Assembly (NCBI GenBank): GCA_964408365.1
Contig: CAYOZB010000003.1
Span: 1-55,407 of the forward strand
Length of the DNA: 55,407 nucleotides
Source: an uncultured Halobacteriales archaeon
GTDB lineage: Archaea > Thermoplasmatota > E2 > JACPAO01
Direction of reading: 5' to 3'
Position numbers and translations under genes: made by a program. Numbering within the stretch: position 1 is the stretch's first letter; each line of letters opens with the position of its first letter. Shown here piece by piece: positions 8,941 through 54,217 of this stretch. The notes beneath the pieces were generated by a model that saw only the letters and a program-made list of their open reading frames with translations, did not search any database and was not told the origin of the DNA.

Positions 8941-9719
8941 CGGCCTTTTCCCAGGATCACGGGGATCAATTGCCGTAGGTCTTGTCCTTCGACGACGACG
9001 TCGGCTTCCTGACGCGTATGCTCATCCATGGCGTCGAAGGCGATCCCCAGACCGCTGGACCAGAACATGGGGACGTCGGGGGCGGAGTTCCCGACCGACG
9101 CCACCTGGCCCAGTTTCAGCCCCAATTCTTTCGCAAAGCGTCGGACCGGGATCGATTTGTCGCGAAGCGGTGTGTTCACGATCCCTTCTCCACTCAACCG
9201 CCGATCATCAAGCGTGACGAGCTCGTTCGCCGCCACCAATGGAATGCCAAGATGTCGGGCCACGCGCCGTGCCGCGTTCGCGATGCCGCCGGACACGACC
9301 GCCGTTTTGACGCCCGCATCGTGCAGCGCCACAACGAGGTCCTTCGCGCCCGGATGAAGCACGATGTGCGAGAGGATCTCTTCGATGTCGTCGATCGTGA
9401 CGTTGGGGTTCTTCTGTTTCCAGAGCGCAACGTCGCGTCGGATGAATTCTTCTTCGCTGATCTCCCCGTGAAGGAACAGGCGAAGACTGTCTTCGTTGCG
9501 AACCCCGAACGCTTCGTGGACGGCGACCCAGGAGGATTTGGCCTCGATTAACACGCCGTCCAAGTCGAAGCAGACGAGTTTGATCGGACCGGACCGCACC
9601 GGCTTGGTTGGACGCACGAGTTGATCGACGAACCGCTGCCACGCGTCTGCTTCGTGAGCGTGTCCCGTTGCCACGAGAGCGCCCGAGCCGTCGGAGCCCC
9701 AAAAAGCATTCGTGTGCAT
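8937..9719 (-). CDS. HAD-IB phosphatase, phosphoserine phosphatase (SerB)-like
   Basis: FDLDGVL motif I, VVSGG motif II and VGNSAPD motif IV. Confidence 0.85.
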   Translation of the reverse strand: MHTNAFWGSDGSGALVATGHAHEADAWQRFVDQLVRPTKPVRSGPIKLVCFDLDGVLIEAKSSWVAVHEAFGVRNEDSLRLFLHGEISEEEFIRRDVALWKQKNPNVTIDDIEEILSHIVLHPGAKDLVVALHDAGVKTAVVSGGIANAARRVARHLGIPLVAANELVTLDDRRLSGEGIVNTPLRDKSIPVRRFAKELGLKLGQVASVGNSAPDVPMFWSSGLGIAFDAMDEHTRQEADVVVEGQDLRQLIPVILGKGR

Positions 9720-9966: not shown

Positions 9967-10284
9967 GGCCACGGAGCGGCAGCGCGACCGACGGTTGGCC
10001 CGGGAGTGATTCCGGGTTTCAGCTGAGGAACGTCCGCCCTCCACACAAAACGGGAGCCTCAAGAGAGGCGGCTGGGAGACTGGTCGCGGAGGCGCAGCTA
10101 CGACACAGCCGCGGGTTCAAGCGATGACGGGGACTGCCCCCGAGGTCGCCTGCGGACGTGATGAAACGGCCATCCGCCCCGGGAGCAAGCCCAGTATGGG
10201 TGCTCAGTAGAATGTCGCAAGCCGCTCCGGTCCTTCGGGATCGGGTCGGGGAACAGAAGGTGGCGTACTCGCCGCACCGTGGCC
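9967..10284 (+). ncRNA. rnpB: Archaeal RNase P RNA
   Basis: P1 GGCCACGG-a-GCGGC / GCCGC-a-CCGUGGCC; CR-I GAGGAACGUCCGCC; CR-V AACAGAAGGUGGCGUA forming P4 with a bulged U; UGAAAC (CR-III); GGAGCAAG; AGAAUG (CR-IV). Confidence 0.93.
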
Positions 10285-17007: not shown

Positions 17008-17424
17008 GCGCAGGCCCTGTGGGGCGGCGCGGCTGGTCCCGCCCTCGCGGTGGGACCGACACAAAGGCTCCGGCCCATGGACCGGAACCTTGTGCAGTAC
17101 GCATCAGAACATCCATCGGCCCGGACTCGCTGCCTCGGTGGCGGGCCCGGCTTCCGCGCCACGAAAGTGGCCGGACCGCCCGACTCGACGGAGAAACAGG
17201 GCGGCTCGACCGGCAACGGTCGGGAGAACGAGCCGAAGTCGAAAGGCTTCGGCCGGATGCCAGAAGGAACTCCGACCCAGGACGGGGCGACCCGACCGGG
17301 GCCCGATCTCGAAAGGGATTAGGCGCAAGCGGAGGCCGGCGCCAACCGCCGAACAGGCGGGACGCGGACCGGCTCACGATGCGGAAAGGGCGCTGTAATG
17401 CCCGGCCGCCCCACAGACCTTCGC
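17008..17424 (+). ncRNA. Large structured non-coding RNA of unknown family (~415 nt)
   Basis: Perfect 12-bp closing helix 17017-17028/17405-17416, more than ten internal helices, five GNRA tetraloops, G-U pairs on the + strand, upstream TATA-like box, downstream T-tract, and no credible ORF. Confidence 0.8.
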
Positions 17425-17425
17425 G

Positions 17426-17445
17426 ACTTCTTCGCGATTTTTGTT
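17426..17445 (+). terminator. Pyrimidine-rich / oligo-T terminator after the structured RNA
   Basis: ACTTCTTCGCGATTTTTGTT (T5 at 17438-17442) immediately follows the closing helix. Confidence 0.45.
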
Positions 17446-17457
17446 CCAAAGCGGACG

Positions 17458-18165
17458 CTACTTTCCGCCCGCGGCTTTGAGGTCCGCGCGGTCATCCGTG
17501 TCGAAATCGTTCGGGATGCCGCCCGTGAGCGTGGACAGGCCCAGCGTGTTCTCGACGGCCCAATACATCACAGATTGGGAATTGGAGCTGTGCTTCTCGT
17601 GCGCGTCGTCCTCGTGGTCCGTTTGCATGGGAATGCCGAGGTTGACCAAACCGATCGCGTGACCAAACTCGTGCACGAGCACCGCCCGCTCGATGTCCGA
17701 TGCGCCGAAGCCGAGAAGTCCGCCTCCATTGATCGCGTCCGGGAACACGGCGATGCGACCCTTTTGGAAGAACACGCCCAACACCTTGCCGTTGCTCGTG
17801 TCGCCGTCACTGTTCCCGTCGACGTACAACACCGTCAGAACGGCGCGACCTCCGGTGGATGAGGTGGAGGAGCGATCGTCGGCGAGGTTGGAGAGATCGC
17901 GCGACGACCACGTTCTCGAATCACCGTCAAAGGCATGACGTTGGACCTCGATCCCGCCGGGCTTGGACAGGCGTTCGTGCGCGCGCTGCTCGAGAAGCTC
18001 GATCGCCGCGTCGCGGGGCGCGGCGTTCTCGTCGTAAAAGACCTCGATCAGCATCGAACTGTAGCGCGAATCCGAGACGAAGTCCCTCGGCCCAGGCCCC
18101 CCGAGGCCAAAACAGCCGGACACGGCGGGAAGGGTGGCAATCAAGATAACGAGAGAGATGCGCAC
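17458..18165 (-). CDS. Zinc metalloprotease lipoprotein (metzincin-like)
   Basis: Lipobox VSGC, HEFGHAIGLVN zinc motif, and SVMY Met-turn. Confidence 0.88.
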   Translation of the reverse strand: MRISLVILIATLPAVSGCFGLGGPGPRDFVSDSRYSSMLIEVFYDENAAPRDAAIELLEQRAHERLSKPGGIEVQRHAFDGDSRTWSSRDLSNLADDRSSTSSTGGRAVLTVLYVDGNSDGDTSNGKVLGVFFQKGRIAVFPDAINGGGLLGFGASDIERAVLVHEFGHAIGLVNLGIPMQTDHEDDAHEKHSSNSQSVMYWAVENTLGLSTLTGGIPNDFDTDDRADLKAAGGK

Positions 18166-18203
18166 GCGCGGTCAATCCTGGACTCAGCGAAAACCTTTCT
18201 CGT

Positions 18204-18240
18204 ACACCTAGGCTTGGACTCTACACACCTAGGCTTGGAC
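18204..18240. repeat. Perfect 16-bp direct repeat with 21-bp period
   Basis: ACACCTAGGCTTGGAC at 18204-18219 and 18225-18240. Confidence 0.9.
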
Positions 18241-18254
18241 CGAAAGACAGAAAT

Positions 18255-18343
18255 CGGCGGCGGAGGGATTCGAACCCTCGAGTTGGTTCGCACCAATGCG
18301 TCCGGTTCGCAACCGGCCGCCCTAACCACTAGGCAACGCCGCC
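18255..18343 (-). tRNA. tRNA with anticodon GCG (Arg) and an unusually long, class II-like variable region
   Basis: Acceptor GGCGGCG/CGCCGCC with G73; D arm GCCUAGUGGUUAGGGC; anticodon loop UUGCGAA; 21-nt variable region; T arm GAGGG-UUCGAAU-CCCUC. CCA not encoded. Confidence 0.9.
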
Positions 18344-18383
18344 GAGTCCGGGCGGGGACTTCGCACCCCCGCCCTATTCTCTT

Positions 18384-18656
18384 TCAGAATTTCGCCGCCG
18401 CCAGGTGGCCCACGCCCGCATCGTGCAGGGTCTGGATCCATTTCGGGCCGGTCGCTTGCGCGACGAACTTCGGCAAGCGCAGCTGGTTCCACTCTTGCAC
18501 CGTGACGTCGCGCACGCCATACCCAAGGGCGCCATGGTCCGGGCACGTGTAGATTTCGCGCATTCGGCCATGGAGGCTCGTCACGAGTCGGGGAACGTCG
18601 ATTCCGCAGACCGGGCACGAGCCGCGGTCCTTGAGCATTGCCGGCATTTGGGGCAC
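18384..18656 (-). CDS. Small CPxCG-type zinc-finger protein
   Basis: CPVCG...CPDHG ligand set in a protein of about 85-90 aa. Start uncertain. Confidence 0.65.
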   Translation of the reverse strand: MPQMPAMLKDRGSCPVCGIDVPRLVTSLHGRMREIYTCPDHGALGYGVRDVTVQEWNQLRLPKFVAQATGPKWIQTLHDAGVGHLAAAKF

Positions 18657-18801
18657 CGAACCGTTGGAGGCGCCCCGACCATATCCCTCTCACGGGGGGT
18701 TGGGTGAAAGTAGTGAAAGTCGCCAACGTATGTGCGGCGACGTCCCCAGAGCGCGGCTCGGCAGGGCTTTAATAATCGAGACCTTCGGCGACGGAAGGCC
18801 C

Positions 18802-20157
18802 ATGTACGTCGTACTGTCGGGCGCCGGCGAGGTCGGCCACCACGTCGCCAAGGCGCTTCGCCTCGAAGGACACGACGTCGCCATCATCGAAAAGTCGAAA
18901 GCCGTCCTCGACACGATCACCGATCTGGATGCCTTGTTGATCCAAGGAAACGGTGCGAGTCAGATCAGTCTTGAGCAGGCGAACATCGCCCGGGCGGACG
19001 TCTTCATCGGCGCCAGCGGTTCCGACGAAGCTAACATGATCGGTTGTGGCATCGCCAAGAGTTATGGTGTGAAGACCGTCGCGCGAATCACCGACGAGAC
19101 CTATCTCGACGAGGTCGTCTCCCACCGTTACCAGAGCATCGGCATCGACGTCGCCGTCTGCCCGGAACTTGTCGCCGCGACCAAAGTTGCCAACCTTCTG
19201 CGTGCACCGGCGTTGGCATCGGCGGACATCCTCGCCCAAGGTCAGATCGCCATGGTCGAGTCGAAAGTCCTTGCGAACAGTCCCATCGACGGCAAGACGC
19301 TATCGCAGATCAAGCCGCCTTCCGGAATCAACATCGTGACGATCTTCCATGGCGAGGAGATCATCATCCCGCGCGGCAAGGACACGCTTCACGCTGGGGA
19401 CCGGATCCTCATGGCCGTCCTCACGCCGGAAGCGATGAAGGAGGCCGAGGACAAACTCGGGCTTCGCGCAGGAAGCCGCACAGGCAAGATGCGCAAGGTC
19501 GTCATCGCGGGCGGGACCCGCATCGGCGTACGCCTCGCGCGGCTCCTCGAGAAACACATGGAAGTCGTCATCATCGAGAAGGACAAGATCCGTGCCCAGG
19601 AAGCGTTCGAGAAAGTCAAGGACACGTTGGTCATCACGGGCGATGCGACCGATCTTGCCGTGCTTCGAGGGGAAGGCATCGAGACCGCGGACGCCTTCGT
19701 GGGCGCCGAGCGGGTCGAGGAGTACAACATCCTCTCCTGCCTCGTCGCGAAGAAGCTCGGCGTGCGCAACACGATCGCGTTCATCAACCAGCCACAATTG
19801 AAGAACCTCGTCGAAGACATCGGTATCGACCTCGCGTTGACGGTCCGTCAGACGACCGTGTCGAGCCTCTTGCAGTGGACGCTCAAGATGGATGCCGTCG
19901 ACATGGCCCTCGTGGGTGGGGGCGAGGTCCAGGTGATCGATGTCCGCGTGCGGGTCGGCTCCAAGATCGCAGGCAAGGCCTTGCGCAAGATCGAGTTCCC
20001 GCGTTCCAGCATCGTCGGCGCCATCATCCGAGGCAACGACGTGCTGATTCCGCGAGGAGACGACGAAGTGCGGGAGAACGATCGGCTGATCATCGTGGCG
20101 TTGACGGAAGCGATTCCGCGCGTGGAACGCGTTCTCCGGGGCGGCAGCGCGGGATGA
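18802..20157 (+). CDS. trkA: Trk potassium transporter NAD-binding subunit TrkA
   Basis: Two RCK_N domains (GAGEVG; GGTRIG) and two RCK_C domains (IIIPRG..). TATA-like TTTAATA upstream. Confidence 0.95.
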   Translation: MYVVLSGAGEVGHHVAKALRLEGHDVAIIEKSKAVLDTITDLDALLIQGNGASQISLEQANIARADVFIGASGSDEANMIGCGIAKSYGVKTVARITDETYLDEVVSHRYQSIGIDVAVCPELVAATKVANLLRAPALASADILAQGQIAMVESKVLANSPIDGKTLSQIKPPSGINIVTIFHGEEIIIPRGKDTLHAGDRILMAVLTPEAMKEAEDKLGLRAGSRTGKMRKVVIAGGTRIGVRLARLLEKHMEVVIIEKDKIRAQEAFEKVKDTLVITGDATDLAVLRGEGIETADAFVGAERVEEYNILSCLVAKKLGVRNTIAFINQPQLKNLVEDIGIDLALTVRQTTVSSLLQWTLKMDAVDMALVGGGEVQVIDVRVRVGSKIAGKALRKIEFPRSSIVGAIIRGNDVLIPRGDDEVRENDRLIIVALTEAIPRVERVLRGGSAG

Positions 20158-28361: not shown

Positions 28362-29513
28362 ATGGCGCGTCTGCCCGGTCTATTTAAGGAATCGTGGACT
28401 CCTGGCGACCCGAGGGGAACCAACACGCACGTCGCCGGCTACCGCGCACCATTGAAGCTTTCGCGAGCCTTTACCATCTCGACCGGCAGCACCAACGTCG
28501 AGGAGAACCTGTTCCTCCAACTGACCGACGACGAAGGCGGAGTCGGCTGGGGCGAAGCATCCCCCTCGAAACGCGTCTGCAACGAAAGCCTCGACGACGC
28601 GATCCGCGCGACGCGTGAATTCGAGAAGAACCCCGACTGGGTCGAACGCATCCTCGAAGACGCCGAACACCTCCCGGGCGGGACCCGCGAACCCTCCGTG
28701 CGCAACGCCTTGTTGACGGCGTACCTCGACGCGCAAGGAAAACGCCGCGGTATCCCCATGCACAAACTCCTCAACGTCCCCGAAGGACGACTCCACAGTT
28801 CGGTCACCATCTCCGTCGGCCCCACGGCCGCGGTCCTCAAGGAAGCCGCCGAGTGGGACGCGCAGAAATGGAAGATCTTCAAGGTCAAACTCGGCAGCAA
28901 GAACGACGAAGCCGCCCTCAAAGCTTTGCGCGACCAGTACCCGGACAAGACGATCCGCGTCGACGCCAACACGGCGTGGAGCTACGAAGAATCCCGCAAA
29001 CGCCTCGCGTTCTTGGAGAAACTGGAAGTGGAGTTCGTCGAGCAACCGATGCCCGCCGACAAACTCGCCGACATGCGCAAACTGCAGAAGGAATTCGAGA
29101 TCCCGATCATCCTCGACGAAAGCGTCCTCGACACCGACGACGCGATGCGCGTCATCCGCGAAGAAGCCGGCGACGGCATCAACATCAAACTCAACAAATG
29201 TGGCGGCCCGTACGAAGCGCGACGCATCGCCAAGATCGCCAAGGACCACGACTGGAAAGTCATGATGGGTTGCATGCTCGAGACCCGACTCGGCTGCGCC
29301 GCCGGCGCGGCCTTCGCTGGCCTCCTCGACTACGCGGACCTTGACGGGTACGTTCTCATGACGAACGATCCGTTCTCCGGATTCCAAATCCAAAACGGAT
29401 TGGTCGAGACCCCGGAGAAACCGGGCGCAGGCGTGACCGCGTCGGCCGCCATCAAGAAGTTCGAACCATTAGCGACCGCATCGCACGAGTTCAGTGCGCA
29501 AGCCGGTCGGTAA
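28362..29513 (+). CDS. Enolase-superfamily dipeptide epimerase / N-acyl-amino-acid racemase (AEE/DgcA-like)
   Basis: GWGEA, FKVKLG, VDAN, EQP, LDES, NIKLNKCGG, GCMLE and DLDG motifs. Start uncertain. Confidence 0.92.
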   Translation: MARLPGLFKESWTPGDPRGTNTHVAGYRAPLKLSRAFTISTGSTNVEENLFLQLTDDEGGVGWGEASPSKRVCNESLDDAIRATREFEKNPDWVERILEDAEHLPGGTREPSVRNALLTAYLDAQGKRRGIPMHKLLNVPEGRLHSSVTISVGPTAAVLKEAAEWDAQKWKIFKVKLGSKNDEAALKALRDQYPDKTIRVDANTAWSYEESRKRLAFLEKLEVEFVEQPMPADKLADMRKLQKEFEIPIILDESVLDTDDAMRVIREEAGDGINIKLNKCGGPYEARRIAKIAKDHDWKVMMGCMLETRLGCAAGAAFAGLLDYADLDGYVLMTNDPFSGFQIQNGLVETPEKPGAGVTASAAIKKFEPLATASHEFSAQAGR

Positions 29514-44417: not shown

Positions 44418-45707
44418 GTGCGGAGTCGCGTTTGCCTGTTGAGCACGGTGCTGCTCCTCCTTGTCCCGGCCGCCTCGGCTCATCCCGACTTCTTCGAAAC
44501 GCCGATCCTGGAGGATCCTGCCGATTACGGGGCGCAGCCGGGACTCGACGTCGTGACGCTCGGCCATTGGACGACCTACTACTACGACGCGCAGAACAAA
44601 GTCCACCGAGGATTCTACCTCAACGTCTGCGTGGGCTTCGTCGATCTGACAACGGCCGAAGGTGTCCGCGTGCACCTGTTCGCGACGATCAATGGCACGA
44701 TGCGTGAGTTTTGGGCCGACGTCGGATTCGTGGGCGCAAAAGTAGTCATCGTCGACCGCAACACCAACGCGACCGCGAACCAGACCAGCGTGACCTTCAA
44801 TCTACCCTTCCACGAAAACGATGTGGCAGAGGGCGTCCACGTCTCGGATCTCTTCGTCGCAACCTCGACAAACCATAAGGAAGCATTCGCGACGCAAGGT
44901 CCGTTCAACCGTATCTTCCATGACCTCATGCCATTCGACAACGAAGACAAACCCACACTGTACCTCGTGACCCCTGAGGTCCGCGGATCCATTGTCGTCG
45001 AAAAGCCATGGCCGTTCTTCCGGCTCGATCCATCGACGCCGCTGGCAGTGTACATGGTGCCCCGAGACGAGGCGCGGTTCCGCATCTTGTTTACTCCTGC
45101 CGAGGGCCTCAAGGACGACGTCGTCCGGTTTTTTCCCGCATTGACGGCCGGTTGGAACCTGTCGTCGAATTACCAGTTCCTTGGACCGTTCGGCGACCAG
45201 CCCATGGAAGTCTCCTTCTCCCTGGGTCGCGACAATGCCACGGTCGGCGAAACCGGCACCGCATTGATCCGGGCCATCTCCAACCGCGGCGGGTACCAAA
45301 CCATCGAGCTCAACGCGAAGGTGATTTCCCCACAATTATGGGCGCCCGAGAGGTTCTTGTTCGTCCCCGCCGCTCCAACCGTTGGTCGGGAAGAAGCGTT
45401 ACGCGTCCATGTGCTAGGCGCCGACGGAACGCCAGCCTCGCATTCGGCCGTCGTCTGGGAACTGCGCCATGACGGCGCACTGGTCGCGAGCAATCAAACG
45501 ATCACCGATGCCGATGGAGTCGCGACCTTGGTACACCTCTTCGACCGGCCCGGTCGCTGGACTCTTGCCGTCTCCCTACCGAATGAGTCTCCAGCGCCCT
45601 TGGCAGAGTTTGGCTTCGAGGTCGTTTCGCCGAGCGTGCCATTGACTGGCGGTTGGGCCGTCGCGGCGATCGTGGCCGCTCTCGTGTTGGGTCGCCGACG
45701 TCACTGA
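44418..45707 (+). CDS. Secreted surface protein with Ig-like C-terminal domain and TM anchor
   Basis: Signal peptide ending ASA, TDADGVA Ig-like motif, and C-terminal TM-RRRH. Confidence 0.7.
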   Translation: MRSRVCLLSTVLLLLVPAASAHPDFFETPILEDPADYGAQPGLDVVTLGHWTTYYYDAQNKVHRGFYLNVCVGFVDLTTAEGVRVHLFATINGTMREFWADVGFVGAKVVIVDRNTNATANQTSVTFNLPFHENDVAEGVHVSDLFVATSTNHKEAFATQGPFNRIFHDLMPFDNEDKPTLYLVTPEVRGSIVVEKPWPFFRLDPSTPLAVYMVPRDEARFRILFTPAEGLKDDVVRFFPALTAGWNLSSNYQFLGPFGDQPMEVSFSLGRDNATVGETGTALIRAISNRGGYQTIELNAKVISPQLWAPERFLFVPAAPTVGREEALRVHVLGADGTPASHSAVVWELRHDGALVASNQTITDADGVATLVHLFDRPGRWTLAVSLPNESPAPLAEFGFEVVSPSVPLTGGWAVAAIVAALVLGRRRH

Positions 45708-51349: not shown

Positions 51350-54217
51350 GTGTCAAGCGTGGTGGTCGCCAAGGGCTCTTATGCGGTTTACGAAGTGCTG
51401 TTCGTTTCGTTGATTCTCGGTGCGGTCAGCGTTCCAACCGGCCTTGCAGGGACATTGACGGGGCTGAACCAGAGCGTTCCAGCAGCCACGCCGTTGGGTC
51501 TTGAGTCTGATTTCGCAAGCCGGGTTGTCGAGGCGATAACGGAAGTTGAAGGCGGGGCGCGGGTGGGTTTGAATGCCTGGTCCCCAACGTTGCCGCCGTC
51601 GTCTGAGGGCCTGCAGGGTCTATTCGCCTTAGACGAAGCGTTCATTGGTGAACAGCGGCAGGTAACGGGGGACCTCATCATCCTGGCCCGTGAGTCAATA
51701 ACAATCGGTGCACCACTTACCGCGGTCCAGCGGTCAGGTCCGAACGGAGGAGTGTCGATTGCTCTGATTAGCATGGGATCATTGGAAGTTTCCGCCGACA
51801 TATCCGCTGGCGACGGAGGTACGTATGGCATTACGCGAGAGAATGACGCGGGGCGCCCCGGCGTTCCTGGGGGGCATCTCATTTTGATTGCCCGCGAGAA
51901 GACGATTCTCACAATTGTAAGTGCCAACGCTACGATCACGGGCGGCCGTGGTGGAGACGGCCAAGGAGTGGCGCGGCTAGGTTCCTTTGATCGCGCGGAT
52001 GCCCGAAGCTTCGGGGGCGTCGGCGGTCAGGGCGGCAACGTCGTGCTAGGCCTCGCAGCGACCGCCCTTGGGCACCTTAGCAAGCCGGGCGACGGCGGTG
52101 CGGGCGGGACCGCGTTTGCCGCAGGTCACGAGGCAACGGTTGCAGGCACGGACGGCGGAAACGCCACTGCCGCTGGAGGGCCGGGTGGGAATGGCGGCCA
52201 AGCATTACTTTTCTCGAGTCTTCCGCCACTATTCGCGGCGCTCGGGTCCTCAATGGCTCAGAGTGCCGAATGTGATGCCGATCCGGTCGACCATACCGGT
52301 TCACCCGGCACGGGCGACGGCGGCCACGGCGAACCGGGGGATGCGGTGCCAGATCCTGGAGGGAATTCGTGCCAAGGGGGGAATGCCGGGTCTGATGCGA
52401 AGGCTGCGAGTGGCGCAAGCGGCGGGAATGGGGGCGAAGCGACAGCAACCGGAGGACGAGGAGCGGATGGCAATCTGCGAGGAGGGAACGGCGGTGCTGC
52501 GGCCGCCGTAGGCGGAGCCGGCGGCATCGGGGGGTCCGGCGCGAACGGGACGGCCGGCACCAACACCGCGGCTACGGGCGGATGCCATGCGTTTAACAGC
52601 GCTAAGGCCGGGACTGGTCAGGAGGGCGGAAATGGAGGAAGCGGCGGATCAGGCGGCGGCGCAGGGGCGCTTGGGGGCGCCGGGGGAGACACCTTGTCGC
52701 CATTCGGATACAACGCGGGCCAGGGTGGGAGCGCGAACGCGGGCGGTGGGCAAGGCGTTTCCGGAGAACGCGGAGGAGATGGTGGACCCGGCGGCAGCGG
52801 CGTTTGTAACGGAGCGGCGGACAACGGTGACGGCGGGGATGGAGGTGCCGGAGGACTCGGAGGCGACGGAGGAAATGGCGGTAGCTGCACTTACATGGAA
52901 GGACCCCCGGGCGCGAGCAAAGTCACCGGCGGACGCGGTTGGACCGGCTTCGCGAGAGGGAATCCTGGCGGCTTTGGGATTGGAAATTCGGGCGGCAAGC
53001 CGGGAATCCCGGGTCCTGGCGAGAAAAGCGGCGAGCTCGGAGGCCGTCCCGACCCACCACGTGGTCAGGACGGCACTCATGGAACATGTGAAATTGGCCC
53101 ACCTGACTTTATGTTGCTCGCGGAGGGGATAACCGATGGTGCGTTGGGTCTCATCGACGTTGCCTGCAGCGAGTTGAATGAATGCTCGACCGACCCTTGC
53201 GACTACGTCCTCGACGGCGAGAACTGTCCGCCATCGACGGAGCTTTGCGACTACAATGACGACCTGCCAGGCCGATGCGGTAATCCCACGCCCTCCACTG
53301 ACCCATGCGATTACTCTGTGTTCCAGGTGGACTCGGACGGCGATCCGGAAACGCCTCCGGAATGCACTTTCCCGCCCTCAACTGAAGCATGCGATTATCC
53401 TATGTTCCAGGAGGACCCGGACGGCGATCCGGAAACGCCACCGGAATGCACCTTCCCGCCTGAAGTGTCTACGGAACCGTGCGACTACTTGGAGCCAGGG
53501 AACCCGGATTGTGAGTTCCCGCCTGAAGTGTCGACGGAACCGTGCGACTACTTGGAGCCGGAGAACCCGGATTGTGAGTTCCCGCCTGAAGTGTCCACGG
53601 AACCGTGCGATTACTTGGAGCCAGGGAACCCGGATTGTGAGTTCCCGCCAGATGTTCCGACGGACCCGTGCGAACTTCCGTTGCTTGAGGGTGAGGATTG
53701 CGAATTCCCACCGGACGTGCCTGTGGGCGAACTGATTGCTGACGCGGAGGATTGCCTCGACTTGACCACGCCCGACGCGCCCCGGGACGAAGCGCAATGC
53801 CCTCTCGATTGCATCACCAACGGACCCTGCGACGACGAATCGCAGGCAGGAGGCCAATCGGAGCCCGAGTCGGCCAACGAAACATCGGCGTTGAATCCGG
53901 GCGATGCGGAAGGCGATTCGGCTCCGTCAGAGAATTCCACGGCTGGAACGTCCGAGGAATCCGAAGCGGCGGAACCGACAACTCAATCCAGCGAAGAGCC
54001 GACCTCGGACGCCACCGCGGCGGATAGTGAATCGGGCGCGTCCAATCCGGATCCGGCCCCGGAATCGACGAGCGAAGCAGGCGAAGACCCTTCTTCCGCC
54101 AGCGCGAATGCGTCGGAAGAAACGCCGCCGACCAGCGAATCTAGCAACAACGCAACCGAATCAGGGTACGACCAATCGACGCAAGGTGCGGCAACCGAGG
54201 CGGAATCTCCGGGCTGA
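51350..54217 (+). CDS. Large secreted Gly-rich (PGRS-like) protein with acidic Cys/Pro repeats and a Ser/Glu-rich tail
   Basis: 955-codon ORF with GGxGGxG runs and STEPCDYLEPGNPDCEFPPEV repeats. The true start may be GTG 51395. Confidence 0.8.
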   Translation: MSSVVVAKGSYAVYEVLFVSLILGAVSVPTGLAGTLTGLNQSVPAATPLGLESDFASRVVEAITEVEGGARVGLNAWSPTLPPSSEGLQGLFALDEAFIGEQRQVTGDLIILARESITIGAPLTAVQRSGPNGGVSIALISMGSLEVSADISAGDGGTYGITRENDAGRPGVPGGHLILIAREKTILTIVSANATITGGRGGDGQGVARLGSFDRADARSFGGVGGQGGNVVLGLAATALGHLSKPGDGGAGGTAFAAGHEATVAGTDGGNATAAGGPGGNGGQALLFSSLPPLFAALGSSMAQSAECDADPVDHTGSPGTGDGGHGEPGDAVPDPGGNSCQGGNAGSDAKAASGASGGNGGEATATGGRGADGNLRGGNGGAAAAVGGAGGIGGSGANGTAGTNTAATGGCHAFNSAKAGTGQEGGNGGSGGSGGGAGALGGAGGDTLSPFGYNAGQGGSANAGGGQGVSGERGGDGGPGGSGVCNGAADNGDGGDGGAGGLGGDGGNGGSCTYMEGPPGASKVTGGRGWTGFARGNPGGFGIGNSGGKPGIPGPGEKSGELGGRPDPPRGQDGTHGTCEIGPPDFMLLAEGITDGALGLIDVACSELNECSTDPCDYVLDGENCPPSTELCDYNDDLPGRCGNPTPSTDPCDYSVFQVDSDGDPETPPECTFPPSTEACDYPMFQEDPDGDPETPPECTFPPEVSTEPCDYLEPGNPDCEFPPEVSTEPCDYLEPENPDCEFPPEVSTEPCDYLEPGNPDCEFPPDVPTDPCELPLLEGEDCEFPPDVPVGELIADAEDCLDLTTPDAPRDEAQCPLDCITNGPCDDESQAGGQSEPESANETSALNPGDAEGDSAPSENSTAGTSEESEAAEPTTQSSEEPTSDATAADSESGASNPDPAPESTSEAGEDPSSASANASEETPPTSESSNNATESGYDQSTQGAATEAESPG
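53294..53719 (+). repeat. Coding tandem repeats: 2 x 84 bp, then 3 x 63 bp plus one degenerate copy
   Basis: 84-bp units start at 53294 and 53378; 63-bp units start at 53468, 53531 and 53594. Confidence 0.9.

Follow-up and report, generated by a model that had tools for sequence, protein, structure and literature searches.

The window analyzed here is the 55,407-nt contig CAYOZB010000003.1 (GenBank assembly GCA_964408365.1) of an uncultured Halobacteriales archaeon, placed by GTDB in the Thermoplasmatota. At positions 18255–18343 of its minus strand lies its one transfer RNA (tRNA) gene, which is of class II, that is, with a long variable arm, and has a GCG anticodon, a G73 discriminator and a length of 89 nt without CCA. 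We refer to this tRNA and its contig as C3 and to the source genome as G000; all coordinates within the tRNA are on the minus strand. ARAGORN called a tRNA-Arg(gcg) at 18254–18344, the Rfam tRNA family RF00005 matched 18343–18255 with 54.5 bits (gathering score 29, E 5e-9), and a covariance model of related genes (R1, see below) gave 84.8 bits. The gene is real, structurally intact and surplus to the normal tRNA set of its host.

The acceptor stem has seven base pairs (GGCGGCG/CGCCGCC) and is followed by U8 U9, by a D arm, GCCU-AGUGGUUA-GGGC, with a 4-bp stem and with U, not A, after G18G19, and by G26. The anticodon arm (18301–18317) reads GCCGG-UUGCGAA-CCGGA in the sequence and the Rfam alignment, leaves G27·A43 unpaired and presents the anticodon G34 C35 G36 (18308–18310) in the loop UUGCGAA, with A37. 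The variable region of 21 nt (18280–18300) consists of CGCA, the hairpin UUGGU-GCGA-ACCAA (18283–18296) and CUC; the hairpin was predicted both in isolation and in the fold of the whole molecule, and its tetraloop has the GNRA form. A 5-bp T arm, GAGGG-UUCGAAU-CCCUC (18263–18279), identical in paralogues from the related genomes G001 and G003, and the discriminator at 18255 complete the molecule. In the minimum-energy fold, at -44.2 kcal/mol (z -2.5), the molecule is cloverleaf-like, 2 of 200 shuffled sequences being equally good, and the universal tRNA positions are intact (U8, A14, G18G19, A21, U33, A37, G53-U54-U55-C56, A58, C61). All anatomical features named in the original prediction (7/5 fold, GCG loop, 21-nt arm, G73, U20, A37 and the G27-A43 mismatch) were recovered with ARAGORN, Rfam and direct reading of the sequence. 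With 7 bp in the acceptor stem and 5 bp in the T stem, C3 does not have the 8/4 or 9/3 arrangement of bacterial allo-tRNAs, and its 7/5 fold, 4-bp D stem and GCG anticodon also set it apart from selenocysteine tRNA (tRNA-Sec), which has a 9/4 fold, a long D stem and UCA.

G000 is a bin of 297 contigs, 82% complete and with an estimated contamination of 1.9%, and C3 might accordingly be an assembly error, a chimera or a contaminant of the bin, which we regard as barely credible. A contig of 19,613 letters from sequencing run X1 (Logan) matched window positions 17300–19300 with no differing letters and no gaps. Run X1 is a possible source of the window DNA, so that this comparison checks another assembler and not independent DNA; G at position 36, the base for which the original prediction had asked for confirmation, is thus no artefact of a single assembler. 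The 55-kb contig also carries archaeal RNase P RNA and PolD genes, and its gene order is kept in relatives from other samples.

The host is an uncultured soil archaeon, and the PolD homologues of the window protein are labelled Thermoplasmata or Thermoplasmatota by their sources. Archaea mostly have one gene per tRNA. ARAGORN found 45 intron-less tRNAs in G000, to which further intron-bearing ones are added. An ordinary 76-nt tRNA-Arg(GCG) is located on contig C8, and the other four Arg isoacceptors were found as well, together with all four tRNA-Ser (UGA, and CGA, GGA and GCU with canonical introns) and five tRNA-Leu, all with A73. Separate genes for tRNA-Arg(GCG) and tRNA-Ser(GCU), which the original prediction had proposed to look for, therefore both exist. 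Three tRNA-Val(CAC) genes were also called by ARAGORN (C6:12191-12263, C6:17483-17555 and C33:14543-14616), an unusual redundancy for an archaeon. A single seryl-tRNA synthetase (SerRS) with the N-terminal arm domain Seryl_tRNA_N was identified in G000, in the 7927 region of contig C2, and no second SerRS was found in this genome; the SepSecS family was not found in this genome at its 82% completeness.

In total, four surplus long tRNAs with G73 were identified in G000, namely C3, a 93-nt GCG tRNA on contig C51, and two GAG tRNAs on contig C1 (C1a and C1b). The C1 pair, at 45231–45319 and 52153–52240 on the minus strand (2232–2320 and 9154–9241 of locus L032), is labelled tRNA-Leu(GAG) yet has G73; both genes have the acceptor stem of tRNA-Ser(GCU) and score higher on a Ser than on a Leu model, and the acceptor stem of C1a has just 6 bp or, alternatively, is followed by a 3-nt linker. 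The covariance model R1, built from six genes of this kind, was searched against 60 relatives and then against three genomes of the same family. Sister genomes hold six further genes as called by ARAGORN (GAG and GAA in G001, GAA with U73 in G002, and two GAA and one CAG in G003), and G040, which belongs to another family, has one long-arm tRNA with GAU. Ordinary Ser and Leu tRNAs are also present in each of G001, G002 and G003, and G002 has a 73-nt tRNA-Phe in addition.

The family thus comprises 11 genes with five non-Ser anticodons (GCG, GAG, CAG, GAA and GAU), and all 11 anticodon loops are canonical, with 7 nt, U33 and a purine at position 37. In an alignment that was fitted to the model and is thereby biased towards the structure, 93.9% of the cells pair, 13 of 21 pairs have changed on both sides, and none of 500 shuffles reached the covariation score. 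The sequence of the variable-arm hairpin differs in each gene. The anticodons correspond to the Arg, Leu, Phe and Ile codons that these GC-rich genomes use most, and GCG, GAA and GAU are each one substitution away from a Ser anticodon (GGA or GCU), in agreement with the earlier remark that GCG is a single change from GCU.

Pattern scans of 197 genomes of the class required a GGGUUCRAAUCCC T arm and therefore undercount, C51 being one gene that was missed. Within this scope a long-arm G73 tRNA with GCG was found in C3 alone, the one match in G015 not being a tRNA, and those with GAG were confined to G000 and G001, apart from a 105-nt oddity in G015; everything else that matched read as ordinary tRNA-Ser(GGA). 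The G015 oddity (L303, contig C10, ~28462–28566, minus strand) is tRNA-like, with an acceptor stem and T arm near those of C3 and a disordered middle, and was forced by ARAGORN into Ser(aga) with a 32-nt intron. A D-arm/anticodon-stem pattern searched across all GTDB species matched only an unrelated Kribbella tRNA cluster. The T-arm motif was found at 31 loci in viral contigs, of which 25 were ordinary tRNA-Ser according to ARAGORN, and no link to an archaeal virus emerged; at one viral locus (L270), on a prophage border, a bacterial Ser-like body with a GAA anticodon has a broken acceptor stem. A global scan for GCG, a long spacer and G73 returned at least 80 loci, and among the matches listed most were ordinary bacterial tRNA-Ser containing TGCGAA elsewhere. 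A tRNA-Ser-like body with a GCG anticodon and an encoded CCA was seen in a Lysobacter sp. metagenome-assembled genome (L146). The 11 tRNAs are a lineage-restricted family with fast turnover that stands beside complete canonical sets.

Isotype scoring was based on two models, one from 27 genuine Ser and one from 9 genuine Leu tRNAs. C3 scored 53.1 bits on the Ser model and 38.2 on the Leu model, and 10 of the 11 surplus tRNAs scored higher on Ser than on Leu. Genuine tRNA-Leu of this lineage have A73 and a UCCUUAGUGGUUC-type arm (9 of 9 aligned), and C3 has neither, so that the arm and G73 separate genes of the C3 type from tRNA-Leu. In a tree of 63 core columns C3, C51 and the GAG gene of G001 formed a clade (support 99/99) inside a Ser and Leu clade (93/95), and C51 closely resembles tRNA-Ser(GCU) in its 5′ half. 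The nucleotide after G18G19 (position 20) is A in six of six genuine Arg tRNAs and U in C3, C51 and the GAG gene of G001; a review on tRNA identity (PMC9976931) names A20 as the principal determinant of Arg identity in E. coli, plants and mammals. Local Arg tRNAs have a variable loop of 4–5 nt, while C3, with its 21 nt, does not have a class I body.

Serine identity is described as residing in the long arm and G73, with the anticodon ignored (PMC9976931, PMC7609411). Since this holds in the systems studied and G000 has one SerRS, C3 would most likely be serylated, and we favor, with a probability of roughly 40%, the reading that C3 is a serine-type tRNA of hybrid identity and a potential Arg-to-Ser missense tRNA. 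We infer that the single arm-bearing SerRS would serylate C3 through the long arm and G73, blind to the anticodon, and that serylated C3 would compete with the normal tRNA-Arg(GCG) for CGC and CGU and read them as Ser. C3 would then correspond, in archaea and on a 7/5 fold, to the bacterial allo-tRNAs. A low or conditional activity is probable, because the anticodon stem is weakened, the foot of the variable arm is atypical and a canonical promoter box is lacking.

A number of observations weigh against a serine identity. The Ser-model score of 53.1 bits lies within the range of genuine Leu tRNAs on that model (44.9–59.9) and is close to that of an intron-bearing thaumarchaeal tRNA-Arg (53.7), whereas a genuine Ser tRNA left out of the training reached 82.5. 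All Arg tRNAs of the lineage carry G73, which accordingly does not discriminate between Ser and Arg. The arm is atypical: it has 4 unpaired nucleotides, 5 bp and 3 unpaired nucleotides in C3 (3/6/4 in C51), as opposed to 1/3–4/2 in 12 of 15 genuine Ser tRNAs, and it begins with CGCA, where all 15 genuine Ser tRNAs have UGG. SerRS is sensitive to the orientation of the arm in the systems studied. In the core, the maximum identity of C3 is 0.68 to Arg and likewise 0.68 to Ser, and the GAA/CAG subgroup of the family was placed, weakly, beside Arg UCU/CCU in the tree. C3 has the C35 and G36 of Arg anticodons, and both bases are kept in a relative at the same locus from run X2, which has ACG. C3 stands upstream of a protease paralogue, a place occupied by tRNA-Arg(CCU) in relatives. 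A TATA-like box precedes 13 of 37 canonical tRNA genes and none of the four surplus genes of G000; random 42-nt windows contained one in 19 of 5000 cases. Harm is to be expected from serine at the most frequent Arg codon, and Table 1 of PMC9976931 gives the archaeal identity sets of Ser and Arg as not determined experimentally. The first of the three readings in the original prediction, a Ser-charged missense tRNA, is thus strengthened by an 11-member family with five non-Ser anticodons and weakened by a G73 common to Arg, an atypical arm and a Ser score at the level of Leu.

Several of these points would be expected if C3 were instead a class II tRNA-Arg, charged by the arginyl-tRNA synthetase (ArgRS) through C35, G36 and G73, in which the arm is a tolerated insertion and the product a harmless extra isoacceptor. 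Besides G73 and the equal core identities, C35-G36 is shared with C51 (GCG) as well as with the X2 relative, and the protease paralogue downstream recalls the one that follows tRNA-Arg(CCU) on G000 contig C212, in G001, G002 and G003 and at metagenome locus L104. Without its arm, C3 matched Arg CCU and Arg UCG best among the tRNAs of the genome, and a non-Arg tRNA followed ~1 point behind. We nevertheless consider an Arg identity rather unlikely. The A20 of genuine Arg tRNAs is replaced by U, a normal tRNA-Arg(GCG) is already present, and the sequence of C3 is not visibly derived from tRNA-Arg(CCU). Moreover, the nearest relative of C3 by both core identity and the tree carries GAG, and other members of the family have GAA, CAG and GAU; such variety of anticodons on the same body fits anticodon-blind charging better than anticodon-directed charging.

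The second reading offered by the original prediction was that of a tRNA-Arg precursor with an intron of ~16 nt in the variable loop, which the splicing endonuclease would remove. Such introns do exist in archaea, as thaumarchaeal tRNA-Arg(GCG) genes (L141, L155, L171, L172 and L204) have 14–16 extra bases at this site; there, a CUGG/CCAG helix lies between two 3-nt bulges and removal of 14 nt restores the loop AGAUC. Some of these genes, in Thaumarchaeota/Nitrososphaerales, bear a second intron in the anticodon stem. In C3 and C51, reading by hand gave no bulge-helix-bulge (BHB) or bulge-helix-loop (BHL) motif that would leave a variable loop of 4–5 nt. The only 4-bp helices in the C3 arm, UUGG/CCAA and CGCA/UGCG, enclose loops of 6 and 4 nt and have no space for a second bulge; taken together, the 4-bp helices that can form in C3 and C51 span loops of 4–7 nt, and any cut would leave at least 11 nt. 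The arm furthermore folds into a stable hairpin, the sequence of which differs among all 11 paralogues, and the same bodies also bear Leu, Phe and Ile anticodons. Splicing of an intron is therefore a very improbable explanation, and this part of the original prediction was not borne out.

Recoding was examined in the DP2 subunit of PolD, aligned with 45 homologues, at columns conserved to at least 80%. CGC occupied R columns in 25 of 29 cases and S columns never, CTC fell on L-conserved columns in 37 of 46 and TTC on F-conserved columns in 21 of 26. CGC remains an Arg codon, the genetic code is unchanged and wholesale recoding, which had been called unlikely from the outset, is excluded.

On the minus strand, C3 is preceded by a leader hairpin, GGGCGGGG-(G)UGCGAAGU-CCCCGCCC (18350–18374), which lies 7 nt upstream of the tRNA, is unique in the genome and repeats UGCGAA in its loop. 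The original prediction had taken the likeness of the variable arm to the anticodon arm as a hint of a local duplication; GCGAACC is indeed common to both arms, and UGCGAA occurs a third time in the leader, but the likeness was found in none of the ten other members of the family. Further upstream, a gene for a Cys-rich small protein of 90 amino acids, P0001 (18384–18656, minus strand; GC at the three codon positions 0.68/0.47/0.81), ends 41 nt before the tRNA. P0001 had no match in Pfam, NCBIfam or PADLOC, and its arrangement on the same strand suggests that it is possibly co-transcribed with C3. Downstream of the tRNA, also on the minus strand, come a T-rich trailer (18240–18254; AUUUCUGUCUUUCGG in RNA orientation) resembling those of canonical tRNA genes and two tandem copies of GUCCAAGCCUAGGUGU, 21 nt apart (18204–18238), which are found at no other place in the genome. 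A mobile-element signature was considered for this 21-nt repeat and the leader hairpin, and was rejected as each is unique in the genome. Elsewhere in the window, the archaeal RNase P RNA (9972–10279, plus strand; 134.5 bits) has two large insertions relative to the Rfam model.

The next gene downstream, P0002 (17458–18165, minus strand), encodes an HExxH lipoprotein-like protein of 235 amino acids and is paralogous to the protease gene located behind tRNA-Arg(CCU) in the order; three such paralogues are present in G000 (C3, C212 and C4). The unit of tRNA-Arg(CCU) and an HExxH lipoprotein-like gene occurs throughout the order (G000 C212:85-160 and 296-1027, G001 C132, G002 C96 and G003 C208) and at metagenome locus L104 (1307–1381 and 1501–2166). 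A metagenome scan with P0002 gave four distant loci, of which L104 alone has a tRNA, a class I Arg CCU. The synteny suggested that C3 derives from tRNA-Arg(CCU), and this was rejected because the two sequences are not specifically alike. The neighbors of the surplus tRNAs are housekeeping genes (ThrRS, Hcp-like, aldehyde dehydrogenase, QRPTase, S8e and DUF6015), and among them neither a shared partner nor a match to a defence family was found. The threonyl-tRNA synthetase gene on contig C51 (L031, 57–1718) lies ~1.3 kb from the C51 GCG tRNA with an Hcp-domain gene between them, which is probably a coincidence.

The locations of the family genes are not conserved between species. The GAA gene stands next to DUF6015 in G001 and G002 and is missing at the same spot in G000; the TrkA neighborhoods of G001, G002, G003 and G007 contain no tRNA, nor is there one downstream of the P0001 ortholog beside TrkA in G002. 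Beside TrkA in G001 (contig C8, 1–440; L100/L096), a UvrB-like coding fragment is joined to the first ~20 codons of a P0001 ortholog, and this junction, a rearrangement or a chimeric contig, falls exactly at the position of the window's tRNA. The order protease-tRNA-TrkA is kept at 85–95% identity in contigs of three other runs, representing two further samples. In run X3, the block 18237–18660 shows 20 differences in 424 letters, as against 84 in 551 in the neighboring protease gene. The contig of the X2 relative differs from C3 at 2 of 66 letters in the 3′ half of the tRNA, and its anticodon arm, CCCGG-CUACGAA-CCGGG, read at a loose end of the contig (18303), has the anticodon ACG and a perfect stem with one more G, so that the C3 copy has lost one G. 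In a 30-kb contig of the same run, 135 letters replace 157 between 18152 and 18310.

Turnover of this kind, together with the defects of single members, is what would be seen if C3 were a non-working paralogue, either a slowly decaying duplicate or a non-translational RNA (a decoy, regulator or processing signal) that is uncharged or barely expressed. We consider this, the third reading in the original prediction, possible, though doubtful; together with the class II tRNA-Arg it is a serious rival of the serine-type reading. It is favored by the G27·A43 mismatch where the X2 relative has a perfect stem, by the difference of near-identical relatives at loop positions 32 and 34, by the neighborhoods of TrkA and P0001 and the DUF6015 spot in which a tRNA is absent, by the 6-bp acceptor stem of the sibling C1a and the U73 of the sibling in G002, and by the absence of a TATA-like box from the four surplus genes. 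Against it stand the intact universal positions of C3, family stems kept by compensatory change, canonical loops in all 11 genes, the persistence of the locus and its flanking genes in three other runs, and a tRNA-bearing block in X3 that has changed less than the protease gene.

Among known systems, the bacterial allo-tRNAs are the closest to the serine-type reading of C3. As described by Mukai et al. (2017, Nucleic Acids Res 45:2776; PMC5389517), they have an 8/4 or 9/3 fold and a tRNA-Sec-like D arm, occur in Clostridia, Proteobacteria and Acidobacteria, and are often located near toxin-antitoxin genes. Like C3, they combine a long arm and SerRS-type elements with a non-serine anticodon, GCG being among the three predominant ones; they are surplus to the normal set, are patchily distributed and have a natural role that is not established (PMC5389517). 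C3, in contrast, has the canonical 7/5 fold, is archaeal and lies among housekeeping genes. With the local archaeal tRNA-Ser it shares the class II body, G73, the 7/5 fold and 'UC' before the T stem, whereas their arm is 13–15 nt long as compared to 21 and has one instead of four unpaired nucleotides before its stem; the local Ser GCU, CGA and GGA genes, moreover, have an intron, while C3 is intron-less, has GCG and scores far lower on the Ser model than the untrained Ser tRNA. The thaumarchaeal tRNA-Arg(GCG) genes mentioned above have the same anticodon, are of ~90 nt and are likewise called by ARAGORN as a long tRNA-Arg(gcg), but they have an Arg/Lys-type body and a clear BHB motif restoring a 5-nt loop, neither of which is found in C3.

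Body and anticodon belong to different amino acids also in tRNA-Ser(CAG) of the CUG-clade yeasts and in tRNA-ProX of Streptomyces, as treated in a 2024 review (PMC11415595). For these, charging and decoding have been shown experimentally, and ProX has its own synthetase, whereas C3 is known from its sequence and its host has no second SerRS among the genes found. The yeast tRNA represents a codon reassignment, while CGC stays Arg in the host of C3. In the part of the review that we could consult, the cases of mismatched body and anticodon were bacterial and eukaryotic only, and within the literature covered, which did not extend to supplementary sequence lists, we found no prior archaeal example.

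Since archaea usually have one gene per tRNA, one would not expect in them a surplus, structurally sound family of long-arm tRNAs directed at the most frequent sense codons. Tools for finding tRNAs name such genes Arg, Leu, Phe or Ile from the anticodon only, which bears on their annotation. If the 11 tRNAs are charged according to their anticodons, they would be the first tRNAs of class II for Arg, Phe or Ile. A broader and more speculative proposal, which we hold to be somewhat unlikely at present, is that this family of Thermoplasmata from soil and groundwater maintains SerRS-charged missense tRNAs on a 7/5 scaffold, through which the commonest Arg, Leu, Phe and Ile codons would be read as Ser. 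This would amount to deliberate, proteome-wide and probably conditional mistranslation in archaea or to a tRNA-based toxin or stress device, the tRNAs having arisen repeatedly from tRNA-Ser by single anticodon changes and being turned over between species. If C3 and its relatives are indeed serylated, they would offer a system, natural to archaea, in which tolerated or regulated mistranslation could be studied, as could the drift of tRNA identity under synthetases that are blind to the anticodon.

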